This document shows, piece by piece, positions 12,172-60,148 of a stretch of 64,000 nt of DNA. The stretch spans positions 64,001 to 128,000 of the forward strand of contig CAWJZV010000006.1 in assembly GCA_963847445.1 (NCBI GenBank), written 5' to 3'. The position numbers were made by a program, and so were the translations under genes. Positions within the stretch are counted from its first letter, which is position 1; each line of letters starts with the position of its first letter. This stretch comes from an uncultured delta proteobacterium. GTDB lineage: Bacteria; Desulfobacterota; Binatia; UBA9968. The notes below the pieces were generated by a model. That model saw nothing but the letters and a program-made list of their open reading frames with translations. It ran no database searches and was not told the origin of the DNA.

Positions 12172-12798
12172 TTACCTCGTCAGCAGTGCTAACAGCCGTT
12201 TCGCCGCCTGGCTAGGCTCATCGGCGCTCATGATTGCCGAAATCAGGGCCACACCGCGGCTGCCCGCTCTTTGGGTTTCCAGCAAATTTTCCAGCTTGAT
12301 TCCTCCTATAGCATAAACCGCTAGGGAAATCTTTGCGACAATTTTTCGCAGCGCGTTGAGCCCTTGTGGAGCACCGTAATCGGCTTTGGACGGTGTGAAA
12401 TAAACTGGCCCGAACACGATGAAATCGGCGCCTTCCCGTTCTGCTTTGCATGCGCCTTCAAGGGAGTGCGTAGAAACACCGATGATTCGTTGCGCGCCTA
12501 AGAGCGCGCGGGCGAATGGCACCGGCATGGAAGTTTCGCCAAGGTGGACCCCGGCAGCGTCGACGGCCAGCGCGACATCGACGCGGTCATTGATGAATAA
12601 TTGGGCTTGATAGCGGTGACAGAGTTGGGAAACCCGCTCCGCGAGGCCATGCAGCTCCTTGCCGCTCAGATCCTTTTCGCGTAGTTGGACCGCTCTGACG
12701 CCGCCGTCCAAGGCGCGCTCCAGCACCCAGAGGAGATCACGCCCGTGGGTAAGCTTGCGGTCGGTAACGAGGTACAGATCGAAATTTGGCTGAGGCAC
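12172..12798 (-). CDS. thiE: Thiamine-phosphate synthase
   Basis: LYLVTD, VQLREK, INDRVD, GVHLG, STHS, AIGGI. Confidence 0.95.
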   Translation of the reverse strand: MPQPNFDLYLVTDRKLTHGRDLLWVLERALDGGVRAVQLREKDLSGKELHGLAERVSQLCHRYQAQLFINDRVDVALAVDAAGVHLGETSMPVPFARALLGAQRIIGVSTHSLEGACKAEREGADFIVFGPVYFTPSKADYGAPQGLNALRKIVAKISLAVYAIGGIKLENLLETQRAGSRGVALISAIMSADEPSQAAKRLLALLTR

Positions 12799-12808
12799 TG
12801 GCGGTCAG

Positions 12809-13589
12809 CTAATTGAGCATGCCATCCAGCGGGCTCGATGCTGTGGCGTAGAGTTTTCTCGGGATACGGCCGGCGAGATAGGCTTTGCGGCCGGCTTCAA
12901 CGCCCTGGCGCATCGCTTCGGCCATCAAGATTGGATCTTTGGCGCTGGCGATGGCGGTGTTCATTAAAACTCCGGCGCAGCCCATTTCCATGGCCACTGC
13001 CGCATCCGAGGCCGTGCCCACGCCGGCGTCGACGATCACCGGTACTTTGGCGTGCTCCAAAATGATTCTGATGTTGTATGGATTCCTAATGCCAAGTCCG
13101 GAACCGATCGGCGCGGCCAGCGGCATCACCGCGGCGCAGCCCATGTCTTCGAGTTTTTGTGCCGTGATCGGATCGTCGGTAATGTAGGGCAGGACGATGA
13201 AGCCTTCTTTGACTAGTATCTTGGCGGCATCGAGGGTCGCGGGCACGTCGGGGAAAAGCGTTCTGTCGTCGCCGATCACTTCGAGTTTGACGAGTTTTCC
13301 GACGCCCGCTTCGCGGGCGAGCCGGCAGGTGCGCACGGCGTCATCGGCGTTATAGCAGCCGGCGGTGTTGGGTAAGTATCGTGTATTGCTTGGGGTCGAG
13401 ATAGTCGAGAAGATTTTCTTTGTTGGGATCCGTAATATTGACGCGGCGCACGGCCACGGTGACGATTTCGGCGCCGGAGACTTCGATGGCTTTTTTCGTT
13501 TCGGCGAAGTCTTTGTATTTTCCGGTGCCGACGATGAGCCGTGAACGGAACTTGGTGCCGGCTAATTCAAAAAAGTCTTCCATGGTCAT
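12809..13589 (-). CDS. thiG: Thiazole synthase (one indel near 13376 splits it into two ORFs)
   Basis: [39 protein letters not shown]. Confidence 0.93.
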
Positions 13590-13845: not shown

Positions 13846-13890
13846 AAGTGGGTTGCGCCGAATCGACTTCGACGCGACTTTGACTTTCAC

Positions 13891-13979
13891 GCTTCCCTAC
13901 GCCGGTGCGACCCGGATCAGGTTCAAAGGGTTACCTGTTTTTCAGGCTCTCAGTCTGACTCGGGCAGACACCCCTAGCT
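13891..13979 (-). ncRNA. TPP riboswitch (THI element)
   Basis: Minus strand AGGGGTG...CTGAGA...ACCCTTTGAACCTGATCCGGGT...ACCGGCGTAGGGAAGC directly upstream of thiS. Confidence 0.95.
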
Positions 13980-14142
13980 ACGACAGCACCCTTAACAAAG
14001 CACCAGCTCCAAGTCAAATTCGCGCCGCCGAACGCTTGATTCTGGAACTGTTGATGGAACGGAGACTTCAACTGTCGAACGGTGGCGGGATAATTTTATC
14101 CGGCCACTGCTAATCGGAGTTGTTCCGTGGCGTGTCAGCGTA

Positions 14143-21738: not shown

Positions 21739-22191
21739 GTGGCAGAAGTCAAGCGGCCGTTTTTCACCTCTTATAGCACTAGCCTTTGGGTTCGTTTTCT
21801 CCGTTTTGGTTTGCATTCGCACAAGAAGCTTGAGGACGACTTGCAAGAATTAGGGCTGACACCGCCGCAATTCTACGTGCTGGCGACCATCGGCTATGCT
21901 GGCAGCCTGCCCTTCGGCGAGATCGGCGCGAAAATGTTGGTGACGGTGAGCAATCTCACCGGCATCGTCGACCGGCTTGAGGGTAAAAAATTCGTCGCGC
22001 GCAGGCGTGACGAGAGGGACCGCCGGGTCGTCCATGTGATGCTGACCGACAGGGGCGCCAAACTTTACAAGAGCACGATTCCGTTATTCGAAAAATGCGT
22101 CGGCGAAATCTTCGCCGGGCTGAGCAAGGCCGAGCAGAAACAGCTGTCGGCGCTGCTGCGGCAGCTCGATCATGAACCCGTGGCGAAGTAA
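21739..22191 (+). CDS. MarR family transcriptional regulator
   Basis: LTPPQF, SNLTGIVDRLE, DRR...LT..G. Confidence 0.92.
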   Translation: MAEVKRPFFTSYSTSLWVRFLRFGLHSHKKLEDDLQELGLTPPQFYVLATIGYAGSLPFGEIGAKMLVTVSNLTGIVDRLEGKKFVARRRDERDRRVVHVMLTDRGAKLYKSTIPLFEKCVGEIFAGLSKAEQKQLSALLRQLDHEPVAK

Positions 22192-22287
22192 CCGACGGGC
22201 GGCGATGCACGCGCCGTAATCTCTCAATATCGATCTGGGTATTCATTCTTTAGAAGGCGGAGGTCAGACGGATGATGCGCCGTTTGA

Positions 22288-22331
22288 TTGACACCGAATA
22301 TGGGCAAGTTATAACAGTTTATACTTTAACT
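22288..22331 (+). promoter_or_regulatory. sigma70-like promoter overlapped by an AT-rich imperfect palindrome (possible MarR operator)
   Basis: TTGACA-N16-TATAAC; GTTATAAC palindrome and AGTTTATACTTTAACT. Confidence 0.5.
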
Positions 22332-22354
22332 AATTTTCTTCGGCGTTAATTTTC

Positions 22355-23569
22355 ATGGCAGACGAAAACAACAAACCGCTGGGACTCGAACGAGTTAAAA
22401 AATGGCTTTATGCCAAGGGACTCGACGAGCGCAGCAGCGGCTGTGTGCTTTGCGGGTCGTGCTATGGCCATGGGCCGGCCAATCCGATGGAGGATGTGCC
22501 TGGGCCGAAAGAAAAATGTCCACCCTATGAGTACTACAAATTTCAGCGTCACACGCCGAAATCGCGCTGGCTGATGGCGCAGCGGGTGTTTCATGGTCTC
22601 GATCCGATCACGCCGGAGCTGAAAGAGGTAATGTACGCCTGCACAAACTGTCTGATGTGCCAGGAACTCTGCGGCGTGCGCGGCGATGGTTACGGGCCAT
22701 GGGATATCACCGTGGCGATGCGCGAGGAAATCACCGAAAAAGACGGTCCGTTGCCGGCGCACCGGCCGATTTACAATGGACTCCAACAACATGACAGTCC
22801 TTGGGGGCAAACCACGCGCGGCGCATGGGCCGCAGGCTTGGGACTAAAACAACTCAGCGACGGCAAAGCCTCGACGCTACTATTCGCCGGCTGTTCGGCG
22901 GAACGCGCCAGCGGCAAGAGCGGCGCCATCGCACTGGCCAAGTTGATGCAAAAAGCCGGTGAGGATTTCGCGATACTCGGCGATCGGGAAAAATGCTGCG
23001 GCCTGTACGCCTTCGATCTCGGTTTCCGCCGCGAGTATGAACGTTTGAAAGACACCAATTTGGCGACGTTGACGCAAGCGGGCGTCAAGAAAGTGGTCGT
23101 CGCTTGCGGCAGTTGCCAACGCATCTGGCGCGAGTACGCCAAAGAAGCGCAAGGCTTTGAAGTTATCCATGGAGTCGAGTTTGTCGCCCAGGCGCTCCAA
23201 GCCGGCCAGCTCAAATTTACCAAGCCGATCGCCAAGAAAGTAACTTACCACGATTCTTGTCACCTCGGCCGCGGCTGCGGGGTTTACGATCCGCCGCGGC
23301 AAATTCTCCGGGCGATTCCTGGCCTGCAACTGGTCGAGATGGAGCGCAACCGGCGCTGGGCTTGGTGTTGCGGCGGCGGTGGCGGCGTGCCCGAAGCCGA
23401 TCCCGATTTAGCCCAGTGGAACGCGACGGACCGCATGCGCGAAGCGCATGCCAGCGGCGCCGAACTGATGCTGACATCGAGCGCGCTGTGCCAACGGTCC
23501 TTCGGCGAGTTGCCCGATGGCGGGCTGCCGACCGAAGATTTACTCGAATTTATTTTACCGGCGCTTTGA
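22355..23569 (+). CDS. Fe-S oxidoreductase with two CCG domains (GlpC/HdrD-like)
   Basis: CVLCGSC...CP; CTNCLMCQELC; CCG; YHDSCHLGR; CCGGGG. Confidence 0.88.
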   Translation: MADENNKPLGLERVKKWLYAKGLDERSSGCVLCGSCYGHGPANPMEDVPGPKEKCPPYEYYKFQRHTPKSRWLMAQRVFHGLDPITPELKEVMYACTNCLMCQELCGVRGDGYGPWDITVAMREEITEKDGPLPAHRPIYNGLQQHDSPWGQTTRGAWAAGLGLKQLSDGKASTLLFAGCSAERASGKSGAIALAKLMQKAGEDFAILGDREKCCGLYAFDLGFRREYERLKDTNLATLTQAGVKKVVVACGSCQRIWREYAKEAQGFEVIHGVEFVAQALQAGQLKFTKPIAKKVTYHDSCHLGRGCGVYDPPRQILRAIPGLQLVEMERNRRWAWCCGGGGGVPEADPDLAQWNATDRMREAHASGAELMLTSSALCQRSFGELPDGGLPTEDLLEFILPAL

Positions 23570-23581
23570 TTTTTCAATCTT

Positions 23582-24316
23582 ATGGTTAAAGAACCGCACT
23601 TCACACCGCAACGGATGCTCAATATGCTCGGGCTCAAGCCGAACTCGCTCGGCCCCTACGCGCTGGTCCCCGGTCCGAAGGAACGCAGTGAGATGATGTT
23701 GAAACTCTTGGACGAGCCGCAAAAGAGTTTCACTTTCCTCGACTACGAGATGCACACCGGCGGGCTCGACGGCAAGCGCGTCAGCATCGGTAACGGCGGC
23801 CGCTACGCGCCGGACACGGCGATTACCACCGAAATTCTTTGCGGCGCCGGCGCGGAATCTTTGATCCGTGTCGGCAGCTGCGGTTCGCTGCAAGACCACG
23901 TCAAGATCGGCGACCTGGTGATCGTCACCGGCGCCCTGCGCGGCGACGGCACCTCGCGCTACTATGTCGCCGAGAATTTTTCCACTGTGGCTAACGCTAG
24001 TATTGTCGTAGCCTTGAAGCGGGCGGCGGAGGATTTAAAAGTCCGTTATCATCTTGGCTGGATCTTCACCACCGATGCATTGTTTCAAGAGACGCCGGAA
24101 CTGATCGACCAACTGAACCAGCAAAACGTTGCGAGCATCGACATGGTGACCTCAACCTTCTTGACCATCGCCCAGGTGCGCGGCAAAAAAGCCGGCGCGG
24201 TGCTGGCGGTGTCGGATGAATGTCTCTATGGCAAGTTCGGCTTTCGCGATCCGGTGTTTTTCGCAGCCGAGCAAAAGACCATCGAAGTGGCGCGCCAAGC
24301 ACTCCAATACCTTTAG
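23582..24316 (+). CDS. Nucleoside phosphorylase (PNP/UDP family), divergent
   Basis: VPG..ER, IRVGSCG, RGDGTS, TTDA; canonical EME replaced by DMV. Confidence 0.85.
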   Translation: MVKEPHFTPQRMLNMLGLKPNSLGPYALVPGPKERSEMMLKLLDEPQKSFTFLDYEMHTGGLDGKRVSIGNGGRYAPDTAITTEILCGAGAESLIRVGSCGSLQDHVKIGDLVIVTGALRGDGTSRYYVAENFSTVANASIVVALKRAAEDLKVRYHLGWIFTTDALFQETPELIDQLNQQNVASIDMVTSTFLTIAQVRGKKAGAVLAVSDECLYGKFGFRDPVFFAAEQKTIEVARQALQYL

Positions 24317-24342
24317 CCATCTCTTTTCATTGAGCTAAGAAA

Positions 24343-25860
24343 ATGAGCGTCGTCCAAAGTCCGCTGTTTGAACCGGTTCTATGGCACGATGGCGGCTTCA
24401 AGATTCTCGATGAGATTCAAGTCCCGCAAAAACTCGAGTACATTGAAGTGACTGAGGTCGTCCAGGCGCTCGATGCCGTGCGCGAAATGAGGACCCGCGC
24501 CTACGGCCAGGTGCTGACCTTTCTCTACAGCAATGCGCTGGTGGCGCAGCAATACCCGGGCGATGACCCGGCGCCGCTGCGCCTGCGGTTGGCGCAGTTA
24601 ACCCAGCAATTTTGCGACGTCCGTCCGACCTTCGATTTTCGCAGTCTCGGCGGTTGCGTCGCTGAGTTTTTCGACAAGTTACCGGCTAATGGCCCAGTCG
24701 GCGAAACTATCGCGCGCCAGGCGCGGGAGTTCGGCGGTCAAATCACCCGGGCGCGCAGCGCCCGCGCTAAACGCACCGCTGCGATCCTGCCCAATCCGGC
24801 GCGGGTGTTGACCCATTGTAACATCAGCGGCGAATTGGTCGCGGTGGCTGCTTACTGCAAAGAGCTCGGCAAAGAGTTTTCTGTCATCGCCACCGAAACC
24901 CGGCCGTACTTGCAGGGCGCGCGGCTGACCGCCTGGGAGCTGGCTCAAGCTGGCGTGCAAGTATCATTGATCCCCGACTGTGCGGTGGCGCAGGTGATGG
25001 CCCAGGGCGAAGTCAACGCGGTGATCGTCGGCGCCGACCGGGTGGCGCAAAACGGCGATGTCATCAACAAAGTCGGCACCTACCCCATCGCGCGCATGGC
25101 CAAAGTGTACGGCGTGCCGTTTCACGCATTGGTGCAAGATCCGCGTTCGCTCACGCGCGGCGCCGATGTGGCCATCGAAGAGCGGCCGGCCGAGGAACTA
25201 TTAGTCTACCATGGCCGCGCATTGGTCGCCGGCGAGCAAGCGCATCTCAAAGTGCGCTATCCATCGTTCGATCTGACGCCGGAAGAGTTTATCACCAACT
25301 ATGTCGGCCTGGACGGTCTCTATACACCGGCAACCTTTCGGCTGAAATACCAGGCGGGAGCCGCGGTTGATGCGAGGGTGGCGCGCGCCGGCGCAAAATA
25401 TTTGCTGATCTACGGCGTGCCGCCGCCGAGCCAATACGCTTTTTTGCTCAGCGCGTTGAAGGCGGAGAGAGCTGAGAGCTTTTTGGTTCCCGAAATGCGC
25501 CCGGAGCTGTGGGGCGCGCGTTTGATCGTAGCAGAATTGCTCAAGCGCAATGCCCCGACCACGGTGATTTCCGACAACATGATGGGCACGTTGTTCGCGC
25601 AGGGAGAGATTGGCAAGTTATGCTTTTTCTATGACAACTTGGCGGCCGCGGGACCGCAAGGGATTTGCGGTTCGCTCTTGGCGGTGCAGCTAGCGCATTT
25701 GCATGGTGTCCCCATCGAGCTGTTTAGCGGCGAGGGTCGCAAAGAATCGACTCATGATAGCGACGTCACGACCTTTCTCGGTGAGCCGATTTGTCCGGCC
25801 GGAGTCGCGGTACGAGCAGTCGGGTCGGAAGCGGTGCCCTGGGGTTTATTCAAAAATTAG
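24343..25860 (+). CDS. Methylthioribose-1-phosphate isomerase-like (eIF2B family) protein with a second degenerate domain
   Basis: LTHCN, ETRPYLQGARLTAWEL, GADR, NKVGTY, IEER; C-terminal EMRPELWGARL...ISDNM repeat. Confidence 0.85.
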   Translation: MSVVQSPLFEPVLWHDGGFKILDEIQVPQKLEYIEVTEVVQALDAVREMRTRAYGQVLTFLYSNALVAQQYPGDDPAPLRLRLAQLTQQFCDVRPTFDFRSLGGCVAEFFDKLPANGPVGETIARQAREFGGQITRARSARAKRTAAILPNPARVLTHCNISGELVAVAAYCKELGKEFSVIATETRPYLQGARLTAWELAQAGVQVSLIPDCAVAQVMAQGEVNAVIVGADRVAQNGDVINKVGTYPIARMAKVYGVPFHALVQDPRSLTRGADVAIEERPAEELLVYHGRALVAGEQAHLKVRYPSFDLTPEEFITNYVGLDGLYTPATFRLKYQAGAAVDARVARAGAKYLLIYGVPPPSQYAFLLSALKAERAESFLVPEMRPELWGARLIVAELLKRNAPTTVISDNMMGTLFAQGEIGKLCFFYDNLAAAGPQGICGSLLAVQLAHLHGVPIELFSGEGRKESTHDSDVTTFLGEPICPAGVAVRAVGSEAVPWGLFKN

Positions 25861-25873
25861 CTAAGGTTTACCT

Positions 25874-26869
25874 GTGGTTAAAATTGACAGTGAAATGATA
25901 CGCTGGGGCGAGCGGCTCTTCGAGCGCCGGCTGATCAGTGGCTGGGGCGGCAATCTGAGTTGCCGTGTCGGGGAAAACGATTTCCTCATCACCGGCCAGC
26001 ATGCGCCGCTCGGTTTCTTAACGAGGAAAGATTTGGTGCGTATCCACGCCGACGGCAAACCGGTCAAGAAAAGCCAGCGCGCTTCGAGTGAAACGCCGAT
26101 GCATTTGGCGGTCTACGCCGGCACCGACGCTCAGGCGATCGTCCATGTGCACCCGCCGATGGTGCTGGCGTTCTCGTTGTCGCATGACAGCTTCGCGCCC
26201 CTCAGCTATGAGGAGAAGTACACCATCGGCAACGTGCCGGTGATTTCCCAGGACACGCCGACGGTGACCAAACCGGAAGCGGTGGTCGAGGCGCTTAAAT
26301 ATCATCCAGTCGCGATCATCAAAGGCCATGGCACGGTGGCGATCGGCAAAACTTTTCAAGAAGCGTTTCTCTACACCGACCTGCTCGAAGAAGCGGTGCA
26401 TTGCCAATTCTTTCAAAGCGGTATCGGCGCGGAGGGTAAGGTTGATGCGCGCTTGACCGAGCCGGTCACGGTTAGCGCCGCGGTGGGGGAAGCCTACGAG
26501 CTTTTCTCGCACGAACACATGACTGCGCTGGTCGACAGCGCCAACGGCGACCGCGACTTTCGCCAATTTGCCAGCGACACCAGTCTGACGACGTCGCTGA
26601 GCTTGCACATGGAAAATAATGACGTGGCCTGGACCGTGCAGTTCGTCGCCGGCGAGATTACCGCTTTAACCGATAATTCCGGCGGCGATTTTCTCATCAG
26701 CGGTAACGCCGAATGGTGGCGCGCGGTGTTCAGCAATAAGATCGATGCATTTTTAGCGACGCAGCAAGGTAAGTTGAAACTCAAGCGAGGCGAACTGGCG
26801 CAGTTATCGCGCTGGTACAAACCATTTCAGAGGGCATTTGCGCTATGGCAAACCATACCGATTCACTAG
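25874..26869 (+). CDS. Class II aldolase fused to an SCP2-like lipid-binding domain
   Basis: GGNLS, SSETPMH, HVHP, GHG; C-terminal DFLISG..EWW......IDAFLATQQGKLKL.G. Confidence 0.8.
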   Translation: MVKIDSEMIRWGERLFERRLISGWGGNLSCRVGENDFLITGQHAPLGFLTRKDLVRIHADGKPVKKSQRASSETPMHLAVYAGTDAQAIVHVHPPMVLAFSLSHDSFAPLSYEEKYTIGNVPVISQDTPTVTKPEAVVEALKYHPVAIIKGHGTVAIGKTFQEAFLYTDLLEEAVHCQFFQSGIGAEGKVDARLTEPVTVSAAVGEAYELFSHEHMTALVDSANGDRDFRQFASDTSLTTSLSLHMENNDVAWTVQFVAGEITALTDNSGGDFLISGNAEWWRAVFSNKIDAFLATQQGKLKLKRGELAQLSRWYKPFQRAFALWQTIPIH

Positions 26870-28374
26870 GTTTTTACGCCGCTGAAGTTTTACAGCGGAC
26901 GGCGGCGCGCCAACCGGACAAGACCGCGATCATCGCCAAGGAAGAGGAGCTGACTTTCGCCGCGCTCAATCAGCGCGTACAGGCGCTGGCCGGCCACTTG
27001 ATCGCAGACGGCATCCGCCAAGGCGATCGGGTCGGCGTGCTCTTGCCCAACTCCACGGCGATACCGCTCGCTTATTATTCAACGCAGAAGATCGGCGCCG
27101 TGACCGTGATCCTCGACGCCCGCTTGAAGGGCAAAGAGCTAGAAGGCGTGTTGCAGGACGCCGATTTGAAACTGTTGGTGGTGCACCAAACTCTTTATTC
27201 GGAAGTCGAAGAGATTTTTAAAACTATCGCGCCGATCCCGGTTTGGATCGCCGGTGGCACGGGCGAGCGCGGTTTCGAGCATCGTTTCACCGCTACGGCT
27301 GGCGCGACGTACCTGCCAGAGCTCAAGCCTGACGACGATGCTTTGATACTTTATACCTCCGGCACCACCGGCGAGCCCAAAGGCGTGGTGCTGTCCTATC
27401 GCAATCTGCTGCAGTATCCCAAGGTGATGGGCGCGATGAACGTCTGCGATGCCACGACGATGCGTGGCTGCGTACTGCCGATGTCGCATATCGTCGGTCC
27501 GGTGGTGTGTAACGAGTTAGCGGAAAAGGGCTACACGCTGGTGATCTTCGATCAGATCAATCCGGTTACTTTGCTCGAAGGCATTCAAAAATACCGCGTC
27601 AATGTTTTCGAAAGCGTGCCCATCGTGTTTCAGCTTTTGCTCGGTGTGAAAAACTTGGCTAGCTACGACACCAGCAGCATGAAGATCGCCGCGATGATGG
27701 GCACGAGCATTCCGATGCCGCTGTTGCGCGCGTTCCAAACCGCCCAACCGCATATCAAAGTCATCCAAGGTTACGGTCTGACGGAAACGTCGCCGATGAT
27801 CACGCTGGTCGAGCCGGAAAAAGCGGAAGCCAAGATGGGCAGCATCGGCCGCGCCGTACCGGGCGTGGAAGTGAAGATCGTCGATGACTACGACAAGGAA
27901 GTGCCGGTCGGCGAAGCGGGAGAAATCATCACCCGCGGCCCCCATATCATGAAAGGTTATTTTCGCCGGGCCGATGCTACGGCGCAACGTATCCGCAACG
28001 GCTGGCTCTATACCGGTGATGTCGGCAAGGTGGAAGCGGATGGCTACTACTATCATCTCGGCCGGCGCGACGACATGATCATCACCGGCGGCTTGAACGT
28101 CTATCCCGCCGAAGTGGAGAATTTGATTTACACCTATCCTGGCGTGCAGGAGACCATTGTCTTCGCCATCCCCGATGCCAAGCGCGGCCAAGTGATCGGC
28201 GCCGCGATTGTACAGCGGCCGGGCGCGACGGTGGTCGAAAAAGAGCTGCTGAGTTTTCTGCGCGCCAACCTGGCGAATTTTAAAGTGCCCGACCAGATCG
28301 TTATCCGCGAGTCGCTGCCGCGCACCTCGTCGGGCAAGACGATCCGCGATGCGGCGACGCTGCTGGGGAACTAG
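26845..28374 (+). CDS. Long-chain acyl-CoA synthetase (ANL family)
   Basis: YTSGTTGEPKG, QGYGLTE, TGD, GRRDD, LPRTSSGK. Confidence 0.92.
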   Translation: MANHTDSLGFYAAEVLQRTAARQPDKTAIIAKEEELTFAALNQRVQALAGHLIADGIRQGDRVGVLLPNSTAIPLAYYSTQKIGAVTVILDARLKGKELEGVLQDADLKLLVVHQTLYSEVEEIFKTIAPIPVWIAGGTGERGFEHRFTATAGATYLPELKPDDDALILYTSGTTGEPKGVVLSYRNLLQYPKVMGAMNVCDATTMRGCVLPMSHIVGPVVCNELAEKGYTLVIFDQINPVTLLEGIQKYRVNVFESVPIVFQLLLGVKNLASYDTSSMKIAAMMGTSIPMPLLRAFQTAQPHIKVIQGYGLTETSPMITLVEPEKAEAKMGSIGRAVPGVEVKIVDDYDKEVPVGEAGEIITRGPHIMKGYFRRADATAQRIRNGWLYTGDVGKVEADGYYYHLGRRDDMIITGGLNVYPAEVENLIYTYPGVQETIVFAIPDAKRGQVIGAAIVQRPGATVVEKELLSFLRANLANFKVPDQIVIRESLPRTSSGKTIRDAATLLGN

Positions 28375-28456
28375 CTCGGAATTCTGGCCGCAAAGATCGC
28401 AAAAAAGAATGTCATTCGAGCGAAGAGAGAAATCTTTGTGAGAAACCTCGGATTGG

Positions 28457-28510
28457 GATGACGGGCTTTGCCCGTCACTTGGCGTCTTTGCGCCTTTGCG
28501 GGAGAAATTT
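28457..28510. repeat. REP-like palindromic element (half copy)
   Basis: GATGACGGGCTTTGCCCGTCACTTGGCGTCTTTGCGCCTTTGCGGGAG, near-identical to 28918-28965. Confidence 0.8.
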
Positions 28511-28524
28511 CTTAACTGGGTCGA

Positions 28525-28854
28525 ATGAAGAAAGCCAAGACTAAGGTCGTCGACAGCGGCGAAGAGCTGCTGGCGACGTTTACGAGCGCGGCGGGGATCA
28601 TTCTCGCTGTCACCGAGAACCGCAATTGGATCGAAGTGTTTTTCGACGGCGTGATCATGCACACCGAGACCGTCAATCTGCCGGCGGGCAAGCTCTTCAA
28701 TATCTACGTCGAAGAGATCGCGCATAAGTCGACGGTTTACGAGCATCCGCGCACGATGATCTATTTCGACGGGCCGTACGATCTGCGAATGACGCGCGAC
28801 GGCGATCGGGTGATCGTCACCGGCACGCCCAACCCACGCGAGAATACGGCGTGA
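28525..28854 (+). CDS. Hypothetical beta-rich protein
   Basis: Host-like codon usage; bracketed by REP elements. Confidence 0.7.
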   Translation: MKKAKTKVVDSGEELLATFTSAAGIILAVTENRNWIEVFFDGVIMHTETVNLPAGKLFNIYVEEIAHKSTVYEHPRTMIYFDGPYDLRMTRDGDRVIVTGTPNPRENTA

Positions 28855-28858
28855 AGGC

Positions 28859-28980
28859 TCGGATTATCTCTCGCAAAGGCGCAAAGACGCAAAGGTAGAG
28901 AAGTTTCCTCGGCTCTGGATGACGGGCCTTGCCCGTCACTTGGCGTCTTTGCGCCTTTGCGGAGTAATCTCCTAATCCGA
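28859..28980. repeat. REP/MITE-like inverted-repeat element (full copy)
   Basis: TCGGATTA...CGCAAAGGCGCAAAGACGCAAAG is inverted against CTTGGCGTCTTTGCGCCTTTGCG...TAATCCGA, with internal hairpin TGACGGGC/GCCCGTCA. Confidence 0.8.
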
Positions 28981-29010
28981 TGTCTCTATCTTACCGTGGT
29001 GAGTAAATCT

Positions 29011-29731
29011 ATGACAACCTGGCCGGCAGCGCCTGCCGAACTTCCGGCGCTTGAACGGACCGTCCATGTTTGGGCGGTGCCGTTAGATGACGCGCGTGTC
29101 GATCTCGACGGCGGGCGGGAGCTGCTCTCGCCGGACGAGCGCGAACGCGCGGCGCGCTTTCATTTTGAACAGCACCGGCGGCGCTATCTGATTGCCCATA
29201 TCGCGCTGCATAGGATTCTCAGCCGCTATTTACAGATTGACCCGGCGCGACTGTCATTTCGAACTTGGCAGCAACGGCAAGCCCAAGCTGCCACCGGTGC
29301 TGGCGCCGGCCGGCGTCGACTTCAATCTCTCTCATTCCAACGAAATGGCTTTGCTCGCGGTCAACCTCATCGGCGAGATCGGTGTCGATATCGAGTACGT
29401 CAAACCCGACTTCAAGTTCGAGGAGATCGCCGAGCGATTTTTCACGGCGCGAGAAGTAGCGGCGCTGCGCGGACTTCCATCCGAGCTGCAGCGCCAAGCG
29501 TTTTTCAAATGCTGGACCTGTAAAGAGGCCTTTCTCAAAGCCAAGGGCACCGGGCTATCAGGCAAGCTGGATGAGGTGGAAATCACTCTTGGCGCTGCGG
29601 ATCAAGTACTGATCCGCGCAGACGTGCCCGGTTGGTCACTCGCCGAATTGAATTCCATCGACGCTTACCAAGCCGCGCTCGTGGTCGCCGGCTCCTCGGT
29701 ACCCATCCGATACTATCTCTGGCAGCCGTAA
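29011..29731 (+). CDS. Sfp-type 4'-phosphopantetheinyl transferase (indel near 29260)
   Basis: LSPDERERAARF; GKP; FNLSHS; IGVDIE; WTCKEAFLKAKG. Confidence 0.9.
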
Positions 29732-30309: not shown

Positions 30310-30986
30310 GAAGCGTCGGCAAAAGCCGGAGGAAGGTAGCGAATGAAAGAGTCGTACGAAGGTAAGACCTAGCCAGTCGCCTTGGCCTCGAGTGATGCGT
30401 TGTGTCGGGCAACCGGCACGGCGAAGCGTTCACAGAGGTACAACCGGGCGGTGTATGGAGCTCCGAAAGCACCCTTTTGAGGTGGCCGACCTTATCCTGA
30501 ATATGGGGAAGGCAACAGTCATGTCGAACGATAAAGGCGAGTTCGATGTGGCCCCCACGGAGTCAGAGACCACCGGCACGGTTGGAAACTTTCCTCACGG
30601 AAGCCGAGAGACCCCGGTAACATCCGTTTCTATCGTAGAAGCGGATCGGTCGGAGAAGGCGCGAGGCCACAATGCCGACGTGCACGTTATCGGGGAGTCA
30701 CACAGTTCCATAGTACCAAAGAAGCCGGCGAACAAAGGCCGAGTGCCCAGGCCTGCGGAGTCGGGGGAGGGAAGGGGACTGACCAAGGAGAACACCGAGC
30801 AATCGCTACTGGACCGGACACAGAGCCGGAACTCGGACGGGAAACCGTTTGTAGCCAGGTCGCGTGGATTGCTGGGTGTACGTGTAGCTTTTGCACGTCA
30901 ACATCCGAGGTAAGAGCCGTATGCGGTAGCTCCGCACGTACGGATCTGTGCGGGGGGCGGTCAGCAATGACCGTCCCTACCGCGAT
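30310..30986 (+). mobile_element. ORF-less group II intron (IIB-like), about 677 nt
   Basis: Domain V GAGCCGTATGCGGTAGCTCCGCACGTACGGATC (30914-30946, AGC triad); domain VI with bulged A30979; 3' end AT; domain I GCCGAC...GGAAGGC stem; no RT ORF. The 5' boundary is inferred from EBS/IBS pairing. Confidence 0.9.
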
Positions 30987-31842: not shown

Positions 31843-32400
31843 TCAAGATTCCACGGCTACGAATCTGGCAAACGCCGGCTGAAATTCAAACTCCAACTTG
31901 CTTCTTTCTCCGCCGCGGTTTTTAACGATGTGCAGCGTGAGTGCTTGATTGGGTTCGGTGAGTTGATTACTCCTCGCCTGATTTTTTTCCATGACCAAAA
32001 TGACATCGGCGCTGGCAACTTTGTCGGCCCATGCATGCGGCTGTGTTTGATGGATGGAGCTGACATCGGGCCAGATTGCGAGCAGGGGTAGTTTCAAATT
32101 CACGGCAAGTTCTTGCAGTTGCTCGACAACGATGGGCATGCGCACATCCAGGGATTCATTGGCGTCGCCAAGACGCTGGCAGTCATCGATGACGACGAAC
32201 GGCGTGCCGTCGATTTGACGAATCTGGGTTTCGATTTTTTTCGGCGTCGTAATGCGATCACACTCCACTAAATAGATTTGATCGAGCCAGCTCTTCGCTT
32301 CTTCAGCGCAGCGCCGCAGTTTTTCCCAGCTCGGTGCGAGTTCATCGGCGCTGGCATGGTGCGCTTTGGGGACGCCGTACCAGTGCAAGAGGTATGCGCT
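31843..32400 (-). pseudogene. DnaB-like/RecA-fold ATPase C-terminal fragment (5' end missing)
   Basis: VVIDDCQRL, LQELAVNLKLPLL, ADVILVM, HIVKNRGG; no Walker A; boundary approximate. Confidence 0.65.
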
Positions 32401-32484
32401 GCTGCGCCGGCGTATCCGCAATCGGTGTTCGGCTTCGCGTCGTTCTCGGATCAGATCGCGGATGAGATGGCCATCAATCCGGTC

Positions 32485-33293
32485 GAGGCCTCGATTACGT
32501 TCGCGAGGAGCGCGGCGGTTTCCGCATCGGTGCCCTGGCGAAGCTGGCCGATATCGAGGAGCACGCCGCGATTCGTGAGAAACTTTTGATTCTCGCCGAT
32601 GCCGCTGGCGACGCGGCATCGCCGCAGATTCGTAACGCCGGCACCATCGCCGGCAATATTTGCCAGCGGCCGTTCTGCTGGTATTTTCGTTCGTCCAATT
32701 TCACCTGTCTGCGTAAAGGCGGACAGCTCTGTTACACCGTCACCGGCGACGGCCGCTTCCATGCGATCCTCGGCGCTGGCCCGAGTTATATCGTGCACCC
32801 GTCCGATACCGCACCAGCGTTGGTGGCGCTCGGCGCGCAGATCAAGATCGTCGGACCCGCGGGCGAGAAGACCTTACCGCTGGAAAAGTTTTTCGTCCTG
32901 CCGTCAGTGGATTACAAACGGGAGAATATTCTCAACCCCGGCGAAATCGTCACGGAGATTTTCGTGCCGACGCCCAAAGCTGGCAGCAAGGGTTTTCACC
33001 ACAAAGTGCGCGAACGCTTGGCTTGGGACCATGCCATCGTCGCCGTCGACACCATCGTCGAAAGCAGCGGCGGCGTGGTGCGACATGCCAGTGTGGTCAT
33101 GGGCGGGGTCGCGCCGATTCCCTGGCGCGCGCAGAAGGCCGAGGAGTTTCTCCGCGGGAAACGGCTCGACGAAGCGACGGCTAAACAAGCCGGGGAGATC
33201 GCCCTCGAAGGCGCGAAGCCGCTGAAAGACAACATCTACAAAATTAAATTGGCCCAGGAGCTGATTCAGCGGGGACTGCTGGCTTCGATCTAG
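32485..33293 (+). pseudogene. Xanthine dehydrogenase/CoxM-type FAD-binding subunit (5' end missing)
   Basis: RIGAL, ASPQIRNAGTIAGNICQRPFCWYFR, HPSD, GGVAPIPWR; N-terminal AGGTDL motif absent. Confidence 0.8.
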
Positions 33294-55992: not shown

Positions 55993-57436
55993 ATGAAAAC
56001 ACTTATTCAAGGCGGCTGGGTTGTCGGCTTCGACGGCAACGAACACGAAATCATCAAAGACGGCGTGGTCGTTTACGATGGTAATCGCATCGAATTCGTC
56101 GGCAAAGATTATCCACAACCGGTCGACAAACGGATCGACGCAAAAGGCTGCTTGGTTTCGCCTGGATTCATCGACACTCACTTTCACTCCGGCATCAACG
56201 CCAGCGACTACATTCTCGCGGATTCGACCAAGACCGATTTCTTTGCGTCGAATTATCTCGCTCACGGCGGGCCGACCCGCGAGGGCGCGCACTCGGCGCA
56301 TTTGAAAGACGTCGACATCGGCCAGCGGTTTTCGATTATTCACGTTTTGAAAAGCGGCGTGACCACGACCTTCGACATCGGCGGCGCCGGCGGCTGAGCC
56401 GGCGCGCTATGTCGACATGATCGATCAGGTCGGTATTCGCTGCGTCGCCGGTCCGAGCTACAAGAACGTTTCCTTTTTTCACGATAAAGCGGGCCGGCTC
56501 GAATATGATTGGAACGACGAACGCGGCAGCAAAGGACTCCAGACCGCGGTGGACTTCGCCAAAAAGTTCAACGGCGCGTGCAGCGGCCGCATGACGGCGA
56601 TGTTGTTTCCCGGCCATGTCGACTCGTGCACGCCGGCGTTGCTGAAGGAAACCAAAACCGCCGCCAAGGATGCCGGCGTCGGCATTCAGATTCATGCGAC
56701 GATCAATCTGTTCGAGTTCCACACGGTCATGCAGCGCGAACGCTGCACCCCGATCGAGCTATTGAAAAAGCTCGGCTTCCTGGCGCCTGATGTTTCATTG
56801 TCGCACTGCATCTTTGTCAGCGGCCATAGCTGGCTCGCCTATCCCTACGGCGACGATCTTAAAATCATCGCCGACTCGGGCTCGTCGGTAGCCTATAGCC
56901 CGCTTAAATATTTGAAGCTGGGCATTCTCATGGAATCCTTCGACCGCTACCGCCAGGCCGGCATCAACATGGGCATCGGCACGGACACTTTCCCCAAAGA
57001 CATTCTCTCCGACATGCGCTACGCCGGCATCGCCTCGCGCATCGCCGACAAGAGTTTTCTCGCCGGTCAGCCGCGCGATGTCTTCAACTCCATCACCCTC
57101 GGCGGCGCCAAGATGATCGGCCGCGACGACATCGGCCGGCTAGCGAAAGGCGCCAAAGCCGACATCGCCATTGTCAATCTGCGCGACATTGCCTTCGGCG
57201 CCGTGCACGATCCGATCCGTTCGTTGATGGAAACCGCCGTCAGTCGCGATGTGCGCACCGTCATCGTCGACGGCGAAACCCTGGTCGACAACGGCAAGTA
57301 TTTGCGCCTGGACGAACAGGAGTTGCTCGACAAAGTTCAGACCAAGGGCGAACAAGTCTGGGACAGCGTGTCCAAGTGGCACTGGACCGGCAAGACGATC
57401 GACGAAGTCGTGCCGCCGAGTTTTCGCATGAAGTAA
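55993..57436 (+). CDS. Amidohydrolase (chlorohydrolase/SsnA-like; indel near 56400)
   Basis: PGFIDTHFH, SGVTT, QIH, SHC, GTD, GAKADI. Confidence 0.88.
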
Positions 57437-59437: not shown

Positions 59438-60148
59438 ATGGCTGAATTAACTGAACTCAAAAAGAAGCTGGCGATGTCGTCGCGCATGCTGTTTAACTCC
59501 GGACTGGTCGATTACAGCGGCCACATCAGCGTGCGCATCCCCGGCTCCGATCATTTGCTGATCTTGCCGCATCCGGTGAGCCGCGCGACCGTGAAACCTG
59601 ACGATATGGTGGTCACCGACTTCGACGGCAAGGTGATCGAAGGCAACTACAAAGCGCCGTCGGAAGTTTTTATGCACGCGCGCGCCTACAAAGCGCGGAG
59701 CGACATCCAGAGCGTGGCCCATCTGCACAATCACATGGTGGCGACGCTGAGCATGGTCGATAAGCCATTTTATCCGGCTTCGTCCAATCCCGGCGCCTTC
59801 TTCGGTCCCGGCGCGTTGCCCAAGTACATGGACCCAGCGCTGATCCATACCATCGAACAGGGCGATGCGGTGGCCAAGGCGCTCGGCAAGGGGGATGCCT
59901 TGATGCTACGCGGCCATGGGTCAATGGTGGTAGCGCAATCGATCGAGTGGGTATTTGCCGCCTGCGTCGATCTCGAGGAAGCGGCGGCGCGCTTCTACAA
60001 GGCCGCGCTGCTGGGGCCGGTGCTGGTTTACAACGAAGATGAAACCCAGCGGGTCATGAAAGGCCGGCGCAAGGACTCGGTGGTGCAGAAGGTTTGGGAT
60101 CACAACGTCGCTAAGACTAAATTAGTCGGACTCATGGACGGCATCTAA
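59438..60148 (+). CDS. Class II aldolase/adducin family protein
   Basis: GHISVR, SEVFMH, HLH, LRGHG. Confidence 0.88.
   Translation: MAELTELKKKLAMSSRMLFNSGLVDYSGHISVRIPGSDHLLILPHPVSRATVKPDDMVVTDFDGKVIEGNYKAPSEVFMHARAYKARSDIQSVAHLHNHMVATLSMVDKPFYPASSNPGAFFGPGALPKYMDPALIHTIEQGDAVAKALGKGDALMLRGHGSMVVAQSIEWVFAACVDLEEAAARFYKAALLGPVLVYNEDETQRVMKGRRKDSVVQKVWDHNVAKTKLVGLMDGI

Follow-up and report, generated by a model that had tools for sequence, protein, structure and literature searches.

A conserved Binatia operon combining a DHAP-shunt-like enzyme trio with an SCP2-fused aldolase and an acyl-CoA ligase, and its possible role in processing a hydrophobic 5'-modified nucleoside

An uncultured Binatia bacterium from soil carries an operon in which a nucleoside phosphorylase, an MtnA-type isomerase, and an aldolase of class II with a fused SCP2 domain are accompanied by an Fe-S protein and an acyl-CoA ligase. 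We tentatively propose, with a confidence somewhat short of even, that this is a class-wide Binatia operon with its own promoter, encoding a DHAP-shunt-type route for a hydrophobic 5'-modified nucleoside; the SCP2-fused aldolase and the ligase hint at a greasy substrate. No published description of this operon variant was found. In the window, as we call the whole 64-kb stretch of DNA analysed, the open reading frame list and the Pfam and NCBIfam searches placed all the operon genes on the + strand, and every gene named in the original prediction (MarR, Fe-S/CCG, phosphorylase, MtnA-like isomerase, aldolase, ligase and phosphopantetheinyl transferase, PPTase) was present:

21739..22191, + strand, MarR-family regulator, 150 aa (Pfam MarR PF01047, 60 bits)
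22288..22315, + strand, sigma-70-type promoter before the Fe-S gene (TTGACA 22288-22293, 16-nt spacer, TATAAC 22310-22315)
22317..22330, + strand, pseudo-palindrome GTT(T/A)A-N4-TTAAC directly after the -10 element (conserved block, 12 aligned loci)
22355..23569, + strand, Fe-S protein, 404 aa (Pfam CCG 100.5 bits in 2 stretches, Fer4_8 28.8 bits)
23582..24316, + strand, nucleoside phosphorylase, 244 aa (Pfam PNP_UDP_1, 108 bits)
24343..25860, + strand, MtnA-type aldose-1-phosphate isomerase, 505 aa (IF-2B 179.6 bits)
25874..26440, + strand, class II (Zn) aldolase domain, residues 1-189 of the fusion protein (Aldolase_II 136.9 bits)
26486..26869, + strand, SCP2 lipid-carrier domain, residues about 205-331 of the fusion protein (profile and predicted fold)
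26845..28374, + strand, AMP-forming acyl-CoA ligase, 509 aa (AMP-binding 282 bits, AMP-binding_C 62 bits)
28525..28854, + strand, small ORF, 109 aa, between the ligase and PPTase genes (uncertain member)
29012..29731, + strand, Sfp/HetI-type phosphopantetheinyl transferase, frameshifted (N-terminal domain in one frame, ACPS domain in another)

The genes are tightly packed, with gaps of 12 nt between the CCG and phosphorylase genes, 26 nt between the phosphorylase and isomerase genes and 13 nt between the isomerase and aldolase genes. The ligase had been described as fused to the aldolase; it is instead a separate gene in another frame, whose start overlaps the stop of the aldolase-SCP2 gene (25874-26869) by 25 nt. 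We compared 45 related loci, using for each count only those with enough flank. Among the assessable loci, 36-42 of 37-42 have their genes in the order CCG-phosphorylase-isomerase-aldolase-ligase, with the isomerase gene in 42/42 and the phosphorylase gene in 40/40, and this arrangement is not due to chance. Co-conservation of the ligase and Fe-S genes with the trio, which the original prediction had set as a test, was observed within one clade: the ligase gene lies directly 3' of the aldolase gene in 42/42 assessable loci, and the Fe-S/CCG gene is present in 36/37. For both genes the overlap or tight spacing is retained, and the operon has its own conserved promoter.

All five enzymes score under their nearest curated NCBIfam cut-offs. 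The alignments assign the phosphorylase to the hexameric PNP/MTAP/Udp group. Its best NCBIfam match is uridine phosphorylase TIGR01718 (139.5 bits against a cut-off of 280) and its best PDB matches are Udp structures, in alignments that end at residues 169-174. The C-terminal half aligns with PNP/MTAP and not with Udp, being nearest to the Sulfolobus hexameric MTA phosphorylase 1jds (E 8.6e-7), with which the protein has a VSD motif in common. One Glu and one Arg that solved relatives show in the alignments are missing; the Glu of VEME(C/T) is replaced by Val (IDMVT), invariantly in 37/37 sequences. We take the Glu to be ribose-binding and the Arg to be phosphate-binding, and since both are lacking, the protein may not be an ordinary phosphorylase.

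The isomerase scored 244 bits with the MtnA model PRK05720 (cut-off 271) and 221 bits with TIGR00512, above the 124 bits obtained with the ribose-1,5-bisphosphate isomerase model. Residues 12-328 align to solved MtnA proteins (1t5o and 2yrf) and retain THCN, with the catalytic Cys, and GADR, with the Asp. The loop after the catalytic Cys is short (7-residue gap relative to 1t5o), in which it presumably resembles ribose-1,5-bisphosphate isomerases. The protein exceeds solved MtnA proteins by about 170 aa: the catalytic unit spans residues 1-330, and residues about 340-505 repeat the Rossmann-like half in degenerate form, the C-terminal 175 aa matching IF-2B on their own (25.2 bits, E 1.2e-5). 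The full length is retained in 38/38 complete homologues.

The nearest solved structure to the aldolase domain is the Thermus fuculose-1-P aldolase 2fk5 (sequence E 1.5e-20; fold TM 0.87), and the structural matches include DrdA (6btd). The domain has N27, S71/S72, E73, H91, H93 and H152, and all of these except S71/S72 are invariant over 19 fusion clusters with mutual identities of 24-45%. After a variable, low-confidence linker (184-204) comes the C-terminal domain, whose SCP2 identity was a second point on which the original prediction could have failed, and which held. The window protein scores 16.8-19 bits, under the SCP2 cut-off of 21.3, which 14/18 divergent full-length fusion homologues pass; the domain profile matches Thermus SCP2 structures (1wfr and 2cx7, E 1.3e-4 and 1.6e-4); the predicted model has a pLDDT of 92.7; and Foldseek aligned it to Thermus 2cx7 with TM 0.83-0.85, the next matches being UbiJ-SCP2, alkylsulfatase C-terminal domains and MFE-2 SCP2-L. 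This domain was detected in 66 of 1.84 billion representative proteins and, since 18/18 full-length matches (323-342 aa) have the aldolase fusion, it is dedicated to the aldolase enzyme. The architecture was absent from the solved structures searched, 0/494 matches in plasmid records cover 80% of the query, and no mention of the fusion was found in the papers searched that touch on two or more of class II aldolases, SCP2 and methylthioribose.

The ligase reached 425 bits with the long-chain-fatty-acid-CoA ligase model PRK06187 (cut-off 476), and its nearest solved relatives are the feruloyl/fatty-acyl-CoA synthetase 8wev (1.6e-76), FadD13 and FadD5. The Fe-S protein has an N-terminal 4Fe-4S dicluster and two CCG domains, as in HdrD/GlpC/GlcF/TfrB; its best NCBIfam match is TfrB (136.8 bits, cut-off 385), and in the Atlas it matches generic "(Fe-S)-binding protein" clusters only. 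We know of no role for CCG Fe-S proteins in DHAP-shunt-type pathways.

The DHAP-shunt-like core recognised in the original prediction stands, as the phosphorylase-isomerase-aldolase trio matches the published logic of the DHAP shunt and of 5-deoxyribose salvage; in the accessible part of PMC6079011, clusters with the same trio and order dispose of 5-deoxyribose/MTA. Gene content, conserved gene order, protein folds and catalytic residues are established by the sequence analysis; for the substrates, the direction of flux and the parts played by the SCP2 domain and the Fe-S protein, we infer the following scheme. The hexameric PNP/MTAP-like phosphorylase would strip a 5'-modified nucleoside, probably one with a purine, of its base, giving a 5-substituted ribose-1-phosphate; the MtnA-type isomerase would turn this into the ribulose-1-phosphate; and the zinc aldolase would cleave the latter into dihydroxyacetone phosphate and an aldehyde that retains what had been the 5' substituent. 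Either the tail or the aldehyde or acid set free would be held by the SCP2 domain, the FadD-like ligase would form the CoA ester of the product, and the HdrD/GlpC-like protein would supply a redox step. As the aldolase is always SCP2-fused and its translation is coupled to that of a FadD-like ligase, it is reasonable, on these sequence grounds, to suppose that the 5' substituent or the product passed on is hydrophobic. The claim that the aldehyde is oxidised found no gene for the step: no aldehyde dehydrogenase or oxidase was found within the operon. A molybdenum hydroxylase occurs farther downstream in a dozen related loci, beyond an opposite-strand gene, and is missing from the window.

An alternative that we consider unlikely, and still to be taken seriously, is that the operon is an ordinary DHAP shunt of the housekeeping kind, disposing of 5'-methylthioadenosine and 5'-deoxyadenosine, by-products of SAM. 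In that case the SCP2 domain would stand in structurally for the C-terminal tail of the aldolase or bind a CoA ester; SCP2-like domains can be structural and not lipid-binding. The ligase and the Fe-S protein would process small products; speculatively, (methylthio)acetate would be activated to a CoA ester, followed by reductive cleavage of the C-S bond and recovery of methanethiol. The operon lies in a syntenic core-genome region and is conserved like housekeeping genes, as universal by-product disposal predicts; the C-terminal half of the phosphorylase is nearest to an MTA phosphorylase; and CCG proteins, to judge by family names, are typically thiol/disulfide or quinone-linked redox proteins. 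Furthermore, published DHAP-shunt clusters act on exactly these MTA/5'-deoxyadenosine-type substrates, as far as the accessible parts of PMC6079011, PMC12632272 and PMC10986504 describe them. However, a lipid carrier is superfluous for a two-carbon aldehyde, yet the fusion is retained across its divergent clusters, and the ligase matches best with acyl-CoA ligases for long-chain or aromatic substrates rather than with acetate-type ones. The family-specific changes in the phosphorylase (Glu to Val) and in the isomerase (short post-THCN loop, extra half-domain) also speak against it.

We give little credence to the view that there is no single pathway, in which the trio would serve one function and clade-wide synteny would have frozen the Fe-S gene, ligase and MarR beside it as neighbours. 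In its favour, the holA, D-Ala-D-Ala carboxypeptidase and MBL genes upstream, and also orf180, are equally syntenic in these loci, which therefore all form one vertically related group; because such housekeeping flanks are syntenic too and a single clade is concerned, conserved order is weak evidence of functional linkage. In L033, the most divergent complete locus, the Fe-S gene is absent, and the PPTase gene and the 109-aa ORF vary in their presence among loci. In L033 the operon proteins (phosphorylase 67%, isomerase 56%, aldolase 57% and ligase 60% identity) show conservation equal to or above that of the flanking housekeeping genes holA (49%) and carboxypeptidase (47%). Against frozen neighbours stand the retained aldolase-ligase overlap and 12-26 nt gaps, the five genes on one strand behind one conserved promoter, and a ligase that stays with the aldolase in 42/42 loci.

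This promoter was recognised by comparison of the regions between the MarR and CCG genes: across 12/12 aligned cases, with a mean column identity of only 38%, TTGACA and TATAA do not vary. The consensus across loci, TTGACA-16-TATAA(C/A) plus the pseudo-palindrome, precedes the Fe-S gene in all of them; the consensus scan did not list it because that scan requires the second hexamer to end in T. The pseudo-palindrome is the sole match to GTTWANNNNTTAAC in the 64 kb (0.12 expected; at least one match in 10/100 shuffles) and may be the MarR operator. The MarR gene is upstream in 34/35 assessable loci; its product, which scores under all NCBIfam equivalog cut-offs, is a candidate repressor of the downstream operon and probably controls it.

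At the other end, the membership of the PPTase in the operon was not borne out, and we regard this gene as a neighbour. It lies near the ligase, within 7 kb, in 22/31 loci, at a distance of 2.1-2.7 kb in L018, L027, L028 and L036, with flagellar genes intervening in L018 (Pfam, this locus only). In the window its frame switches at 29258-29262, as located by tblastn with the one-frame L001 homologue, and no carrier protein was found nearby. The 109-aa ORF, present in 23/34 loci and flanked by two copies of a 41-nt repeat, matches no family of Pfam or NCBIfam, even with the E threshold at 10, and no scan identified it as a carrier protein.

Plain ribonucleoside catabolism without a bisphosphate step (ribose-1-phosphate to ribulose-1-phosphate to DHAP and glycolaldehyde, with a GlcF-like Fe-S protein in glycolate oxidation) appears scarcely probable. 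It would fit the uridine phosphorylase and Udp matches mentioned above, the short loop of the isomerase, the GlcF/GlpC domain architecture and the match of the aldolase to the haloarchaeal ribulose-1-phosphate aldolase model. However, that match scores 68 bits where the cut-off is 300, and the GlcF match 27 where it is 333, the GlcD/GlcE flavoprotein partner is absent, the phosphorylase in its C-terminal half aligns with PNP/MTAP, and the SCP2 domain and long-chain-type ligase are left unexplained. Most improbable is a synthetic direction, in which the aldolase would join DHAP to an SCP2-held lipid aldehyde, the isomerase close the furanose-1-phosphate and the phosphorylase add the base, yielding, for the envelope of Binatia, a sugar or nucleoside with a lipid tail: the three core reactions are reversible in principle, the highly conserved core-genome locus fits biosynthesis of a structural component and the SCP2 domain and ligase indicate lipid input, but there is no acyl-CoA reductase to produce the aldehyde, no transferase or exporter in the conserved block, and no precedent for this direction was found in the literature consulted.

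Returning to the degradative route for a hydrophobic nucleoside, adenosylhopane had been suggested as its substrate, and nothing supports this compound specifically. The guess was based on the hopanoid side-chain pathway (HpnH adenosylhopane synthase, HpnG), which likewise has a PNP_UDP_1 enzyme: in the accessible part of PMC12324291, HpnG takes adenine off a lipid-tailed adenosine. The known route differs in having no isomerase or aldolase step, our phosphorylase scores 25.5 bits with the HpnG model (cut-off 187.1), no shc, hpnH or other hopanoid, cyclase or radical-SAM gene was detected among the 72 window ORFs scanned, and no literature on hopanoids in Binatia was found. With the SCP2 family (2cx7/1wfr, UbiJ, alkylsulfatase, MFE-2) the fused domain shares the order of secondary structure (helix-helix, four-strand, helix, strand, helix) and the region of the motif G-K-L-K-L-K-(R/G)-G-x-L; it differs in its fusion to a class II aldolase, and its lipid binding is a prediction. 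The haloarchaeal non-carboxylating pentose bisphosphate pathway differs in its ribose-1-phosphate kinase and RuBP phosphatase, neither of which is in the Binatia operon, as well as in the low score of our aldolase with its aldolase model and in the higher score of our isomerase with MtnA than with ribose-1,5-bisphosphate isomerase. No paper bringing together the DHAP shunt and SCP2 was found in the literature searched. The DHAP shunt (MtnP or MtnN+MtnK/DrdK, MtnA/DrdI, Ald2/DrdA) itself is similar in having the three enzyme families in one operon, down to a PNP_UDP_1 phosphorylase, an MtnA-type isomerase with catalytic Cys and Asp, and a Zn aldolase with DHAP-binding residues. In contrast to it, the Binatia aldolase has an SCP2 domain, the 505-aa isomerase a degenerate duplicated half-domain, and the phosphorylase, of the hexameric PNP/Udp/MTAP kind, an invariant Glu-to-Val change, and the genes of an acyl-CoA ligase and of an HdrD-like Fe-S protein, predicted to be co-transcribed, are added.

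The ORF calls of the operon region were annotated by the Pfam and NCBIfam family models, and the resulting layout is as follows.

Genes of the operon and its immediate flanks (window coordinates; ORF calls annotated by Pfam and NCBIfam)
21739-22191, plus strand: MarR regulator
22355-23569, plus strand: Fe-S protein (4Fe-4S dicluster, two CCG domains), 404 aa
23582-24316, plus strand: nucleoside phosphorylase of the PNP_UDP_1 family, 244 aa
24343-25860, plus strand: MtnA-like isomerase, 505 aa
25874-26869, plus strand: class II aldolase with a C-terminal extension, 331 aa
26845-28374, plus strand: AMP-forming acyl-CoA ligase, 509 aa
28525-28854, plus strand: orf109, a small ORF of 109 aa without family match
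29012-29731, plus strand: Sfp/HetI-type phosphopantetheinyl transferase (PPTase)

All the genes named in the original prediction were found, and its inventory needed four amendments: the ligase has a gene of its own, in a different frame; the reading frame of the PPTase is interrupted; the isomerase exceeds the usual length; and one further small ORF is present. In the five-gene stretch that begins with the Fe-S gene and ends with the ligase gene, the successive spacings are 12, 26 and 13 nt and then a 25-nt overlap. The MarR gene lies 163 nt from the Fe-S gene, and gaps of about 150 nt precede both orf109 and the PPTase. Conservation was counted over 45 related loci, assessing for each gene only those loci with enough flank: the isomerase and the ligase were each present in 42 of 42, the phosphorylase in 40 of 40, the Fe-S gene in 36 of 37 and MarR in 34 of 35.

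The alignment of 12 MarR-CCG intergenic regions, with a mean column identity of just 38%, contained TTGACA and TATAA, both invariant and separated by 16 nt (22288-22315), and, 3' of the TATAA, a conserved pseudo-palindrome GTT(T/A)A-N4-TTAAC (22317-22330). We infer that the first pair would be the operon promoter and that the pseudo-palindrome is a candidate MarR operator. The latter emerged from the alignment, and a search for exact inverted repeats (seed 6) in two intergenic regions returned none. The promoter and terminator scan gave no more matches than in shuffles, and no Rfam match to a riboswitch or leader 5' of the operon was obtained within 21-30 kb of the window. Elsewhere, a TPP riboswitch (13877-13985, minus strand, 72 bits) is located 5' of minus-strand thiamine genes, namely a ThiG fragment (12809-13336) and ThiE (12172-12798).

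The aldolase C-terminus had been read in the original prediction as an SCP2-like domain, and this assignment was upheld by the profile match to Thermus SCP2 and by the Foldseek comparison. On the Pfam SCP2 model the window protein scores 16.8 bits as a whole and 19.0 bits as the domain alone (cut-off 21.3), and the gathering score is exceeded by 14 of the 18 full-length homologous fusions (21.8-34 bits). A profile from 22 Binatia-type domains matched the SCP2 proteins of Thermus thermophilus 1wfr (E 1.3e-4) and 2cx7 (E 1.6e-4). The AlphaFold model of the domain (pLDDT 92.7) matched 2cx7 in Foldseek with a TM of 0.83-0.85 and E 4e-9, followed by UbiJ-SCP2, alkylsulfatase C-terminal domains, the MFE-2 SCP2-like domain and insect and mammalian SCP2; all the named matches at E <= 0.003 were SCP2-type domains. 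In the model of the full-length fusion (pLDDT 82.5, pTM 0.68) the linker 184-204 is disordered, and it is also a variable stretch of the alignment. When residues 185-331 were used as query against 1.84 billion representative proteins, just 66 matches were recovered, and all 18 full-length ones (323-342 aa) carry an SCP2-type domain at the same position behind Aldolase_II. Across all the proteins searched, this SCP2 domain is essentially confined to this aldolase.

The aldolase half matches fuculose-1-phosphate aldolases and DrdA, the 5-deoxyribulose-1-phosphate aldolase of the DHAP shunt. No change is seen at N27, E73, H91, H93 or H152 across 19 divergent fusion clusters whose mutual identity is just 24-45%, nor at S71 and S72 across 25 Binatia-type sequences. 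The three zinc histidines, the catalytic Glu and the phosphate-binding Asn/Ser of a DHAP-shunt aldolase are thus present, with roles which we take to be those of E. coli FucA. Regarding the distribution of the fusion, eight aldolase+SCP2 clusters were found in the Atlas, and among the three displayed the commonest taxon was Binatota in two and Myxococcota in one. The close homologues are labelled Candidatus Binatia, Binatus or, in older records, 'Deltaproteobacteria', the best match being 98% identical. No fusion form of more than 600 aa was present among 8000 scored candidates, which is weak evidence, and none of the 494 matching plasmid records covered at least 80% of the query, i.e. no fusion was found on plasmids.

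Two candidates from these searches were set aside. The neighbourhood of the aldolase on a Thermus megaplasmid, where a creatininase, a Tm-1-like protein and tricarboxylate transporters surround it, is unrelated, as a phosphorylase, an isomerase, SCP2 and a ligase are all absent from it. The second, P0182, is a database protein of 694 aa with a TIGR03960 B12-binding radical-SAM N-terminus, aldolase, SCP2 and a histidinol-dehydrogenase tail. Its TIGR03960 part stops at profile position 384 of 605 and its aldolase begins at profile position 43, and it was discarded as evidence of a radical-SAM/fusion linkage, being a probable chimeric gene call that joins truncated proteins. Should it be genuine, a radical-SAM gene would lie beside the fusion in another lineage.

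Residues 12-328 of the isomerase can be aligned with MtnA proteins of known structure. The THCN Cys and the GADR Asp are retained, both within conserved blocks of the homologue alignment and presumably catalytic. Seven residues after the Cys are absent in comparison with 1t5o, and the score on PRK05720 is 244 bits (cut-off 271). The last ~170 residues are a degenerate copy of the Rossmann-like half: taken by itself, this stretch reaches 25.2 bits against Pfam IF-2B, and the repeat is visible by eye (first copy, ETRPYLQGARL; second copy, EMRPELWGARL). All 38 complete homologues retain the extension.

The phosphorylase is a member of the hexameric PNP/Udp/MTAP group, in which its best overall family is uridine phosphorylase TIGR01718 (139.5 bits, cut-off 280; DeoD, 85.8 vs 232). 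Classical Udp alignments end at residues 169-174; for the C-terminal half, the nearest relatives are the hexameric MTA phosphorylase 1jds of Sulfolobus (E 8.6e-7) and DeoD enzymes, with which it shares a VSD motif. The (E/D)ME(T/C) motif of the relatives is IDMVT here, with Val replacing Glu in 37 of 37 sequences. With the equivalog cut-offs unreached and this conserved ribose-binding Glu absent, the protein could not be assigned to Udp, DeoD or hexameric MTAP. The Glu presumably holds the 2' and 3' hydroxyls of the ribose, and a Leu occupies the position aligned to the phosphate-binding Arg of the neighbouring subunit; these two replacements mean that the pocket for the sugar or the phosphate differs from that of the relatives.

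The ligase carries the domains of an ANL enzyme (AMP-binding, 282 bits; AMP-binding C-terminal domain, 62 bits). Its nearest subfamily is PRK06187 (425 bits, cut-off 476), and it resembles FadD13, FadD5 and feruloyl-CoA-synthetase. The Fe-S protein shows an HdrD/GlpC/GlcF/TfrB-type architecture, and all its 10 NCBIfam matches are far under their cut-offs (the best, TfrB, 136.8 bits vs 385); in the Atlas it falls in generic clusters only. In L033 (5113-6469), the most divergent complete locus, the phosphorylase is directly 3' of MarR and the Fe-S/CCG gene is absent, so that at least one lineage can do without the Fe-S protein.

In the case of the PPTase, an intact two-domain ORF was not found in the window and its position relative to the ligase is variable. 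The gene is in two frames, with the N-terminal domain in the frame 28957-29523, the ACPS domain in the frame 29192-29731 and the break near 29258-29262. The homologue in the related locus L001 reads in one frame, and the break in the window would be either a sequencing error or a pseudogene. Many genes of the window look truncated or split (e.g. ThiG, the amidohydrolase described below and the PPTase), and split genes also occur in the related loci L001, L036, L037 and L044; a likely cause is sequencing error, in an assembly of this type. A PPTase is located within 7 kb in 22 of 31 assessable loci. It stands 2.1-2.7 kb from the ligase in L018, L027, L028 and L036, with flagellar genes in the gap in L018 (Pfam), and in other loci a PolA, SDR or DnaB-like gene adjoins the ligase downstream. 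No PP-binding (carrier protein) family was detected in the window scans.

Several features mark the sequence around and beyond the PPTase. Since orf109 was found in just 23 of 34 assessable loci, it may be a small inserted cassette. It is flanked by two copies of a 41-nt element (28460-28500 and 28921-28961; one difference, 0 expected by chance), each with a short hairpin (GACGGGC...GCCCGTC) followed by GCGTCTTTGCGCCTTTGCG, whose reverse complement is also present at about 28876-28894. Just 3' of the PPTase, two Rfam matches only about 640 nt apart, one to domains D1-D4 of a group II intron (30348-30572, 153.9 bits) and one to D5-D6 (30912-30986, 43.4 bits), suggest a compact, possibly ORF-less intron of this group; a 173-aa ORF in this region (30392-30913) had no family match. 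Further downstream, the stretch 31846-32487 was compared with L001 12178-16047: the DnaB-like gene has no N-terminal 127 aa, the 2Fe-2S subunit is absent and the molybdopterin subunit, of the aldehyde-oxidase/xanthine-dehydrogenase type, is down to 28 aa. These losses are a deletion or a misassembly. A CO-dehydrogenase-type flavoprotein fragment persists at 32586-33293.

Taking these enzymes together, we tentatively propose that the substrate may be a 5'-modified nucleoside whose derived aldehyde or acid is hydrophobic, held by SCP2 and then activated with CoA. The phosphorylase would release a 5-substituted ribose-1-phosphate, the isomerase would convert it to the ribulose-1-phosphate, and the aldolase would cleave this to DHAP and an aldehyde. 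The SCP2 domain would keep hold of the hydrophobic aldehyde or acid, and the ligase, translationally coupled to the aldolase, would turn the acid into a CoA ester. A hydrophobic product is the simplest reading because of the SCP2 domain on the aldolase and the coupled FadD-like ligase. No aldehyde-oxidising enzyme was found in the operon block, and the HdrD/GlpC-type Fe-S protein has no obvious task in the proposed pathway. A molybdenum hydroxylase was considered as the missing aldehyde oxidase and rejected: 12 of the 45 loci have one further downstream, beyond a DnaB-like gene on the opposite strand, and only the 28-aa fragment is left in the window.

We consider it rather unlikely that the operon is an ordinary MTA/5'-deoxyadenosine shunt in which the accessory genes handle the products. 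The appeal of this reading is that the locus belongs to the core genome and is as conserved as housekeeping genes. Outside the operon, the window contains an amidohydrolase (56417-57436) of the chlorohydrolase/5'-deoxyadenosine-deaminase/MTA-SAH-deaminase group (PRK06151, 318 bits, cut-off 416, N-terminus missing) and, 2 kb from it, a second class II aldolase, unfused, of 236 aa (59438-60148). Both may represent further nucleoside by-product metabolism in the same genome.

It is improbable that the genes are mere neighbours and not one pathway. Gene order alone says little in this respect, since the upstream holA, orf180, D-Ala-D-Ala carboxypeptidase and MBL hydrolase genes are also syntenic in nearly all loci and a single clade was sampled. 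The case for one unit is better made by the kept aldolase-ligase overlap, the tight gaps and the conserved promoter with its pseudo-palindrome. For the upstream MBL gene, which is RNase Z/cyclic-nucleotide phosphodiesterase-like and far under the cut-offs, no link with the operon was found, and it was rejected as a partner. We give little credence to a plain ribonucleoside cleavage yielding glycolaldehyde, and still less to an operon working in the synthetic direction.

Another reading, by analogy and with a very low probability, is that a lipid is 5'-adenosylated by a radical-SAM enzyme encoded elsewhere, and that the operon cleaves the ribose and leaves two of its carbons on the lipid as a C2 extension. 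The alkene would pass through aldehyde and acid to acyl-CoA, with recovery of DHAP and base; HpnH, acting on hopene, and MqnE, in futalosine synthesis, are precedents of such adenosylation. If true, with adenosylhopane it would give a biological route to C32 hopanoic acid, and with another lipid a new elongation or catabolism of Binatia membrane lipids. Adenosylhopane had been advanced as a speculative substrate, and nothing was found in its favour beyond chemical analogy: the phosphorylase scores 25.5 bits on HpnG TIGR03468 (cut-off 187.1), squalene-hopene cyclase and radical-SAM families were not detected among the 72 window ORFs or the 36 scanned ORFs of selected loci, and the co-occurrence with shc/hpnH expected of HpnG was not seen in these two sets. 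Our literature search found neither a statement on hopanoids in Binatia/Binatota nor a published account of Binatota salvage, and the text of PMC12324291 does not mention 'Binat'.

Under our preferred reading of a hydrophobic substrate, the pathway family would reach lipid or xenobiotic nucleoside metabolism, with a defined gene set that can be assayed; under MTA/5'-deoxyadenosine salvage, the accessory genes may reveal the fate of the aldehyde in some aerobes. The lineage is a widespread uncultured group of soil and sediment with the operon in its core genome, and three concrete features can be tested: the aldolase-SCP2 fusion, the 505-aa isomerase with a duplicated half-domain and the Glu-to-Val phosphorylase. 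With respect to known systems, the available text of PMC6079011 describes phosphorylase-isomerase-aldolase clusters that dispose of 5'-deoxynucleosides via ribulose-1-phosphate to DHAP and an aldehyde, and the genes studied here, of the same families and with gaps of 12-26 nt, agree with the cluster definition in that text. Neither the DHAP shunt together with SCP2 nor a class II aldolase with SCP2 was found in the literature searched, and the fusion itself was met in none of the papers and solved structures covered. The core chemistry would be that of the DHAP shunt, whereas each enzyme forms its own subfamily and the accessory genes have no precedent. In contrast to the DHAP shunt, which is described for small SAM by-products and takes three enzymes, the operon has an additional SCP2 domain, an acyl-CoA ligase and a redox protein, and the route is coupled here to lipid-type modules.
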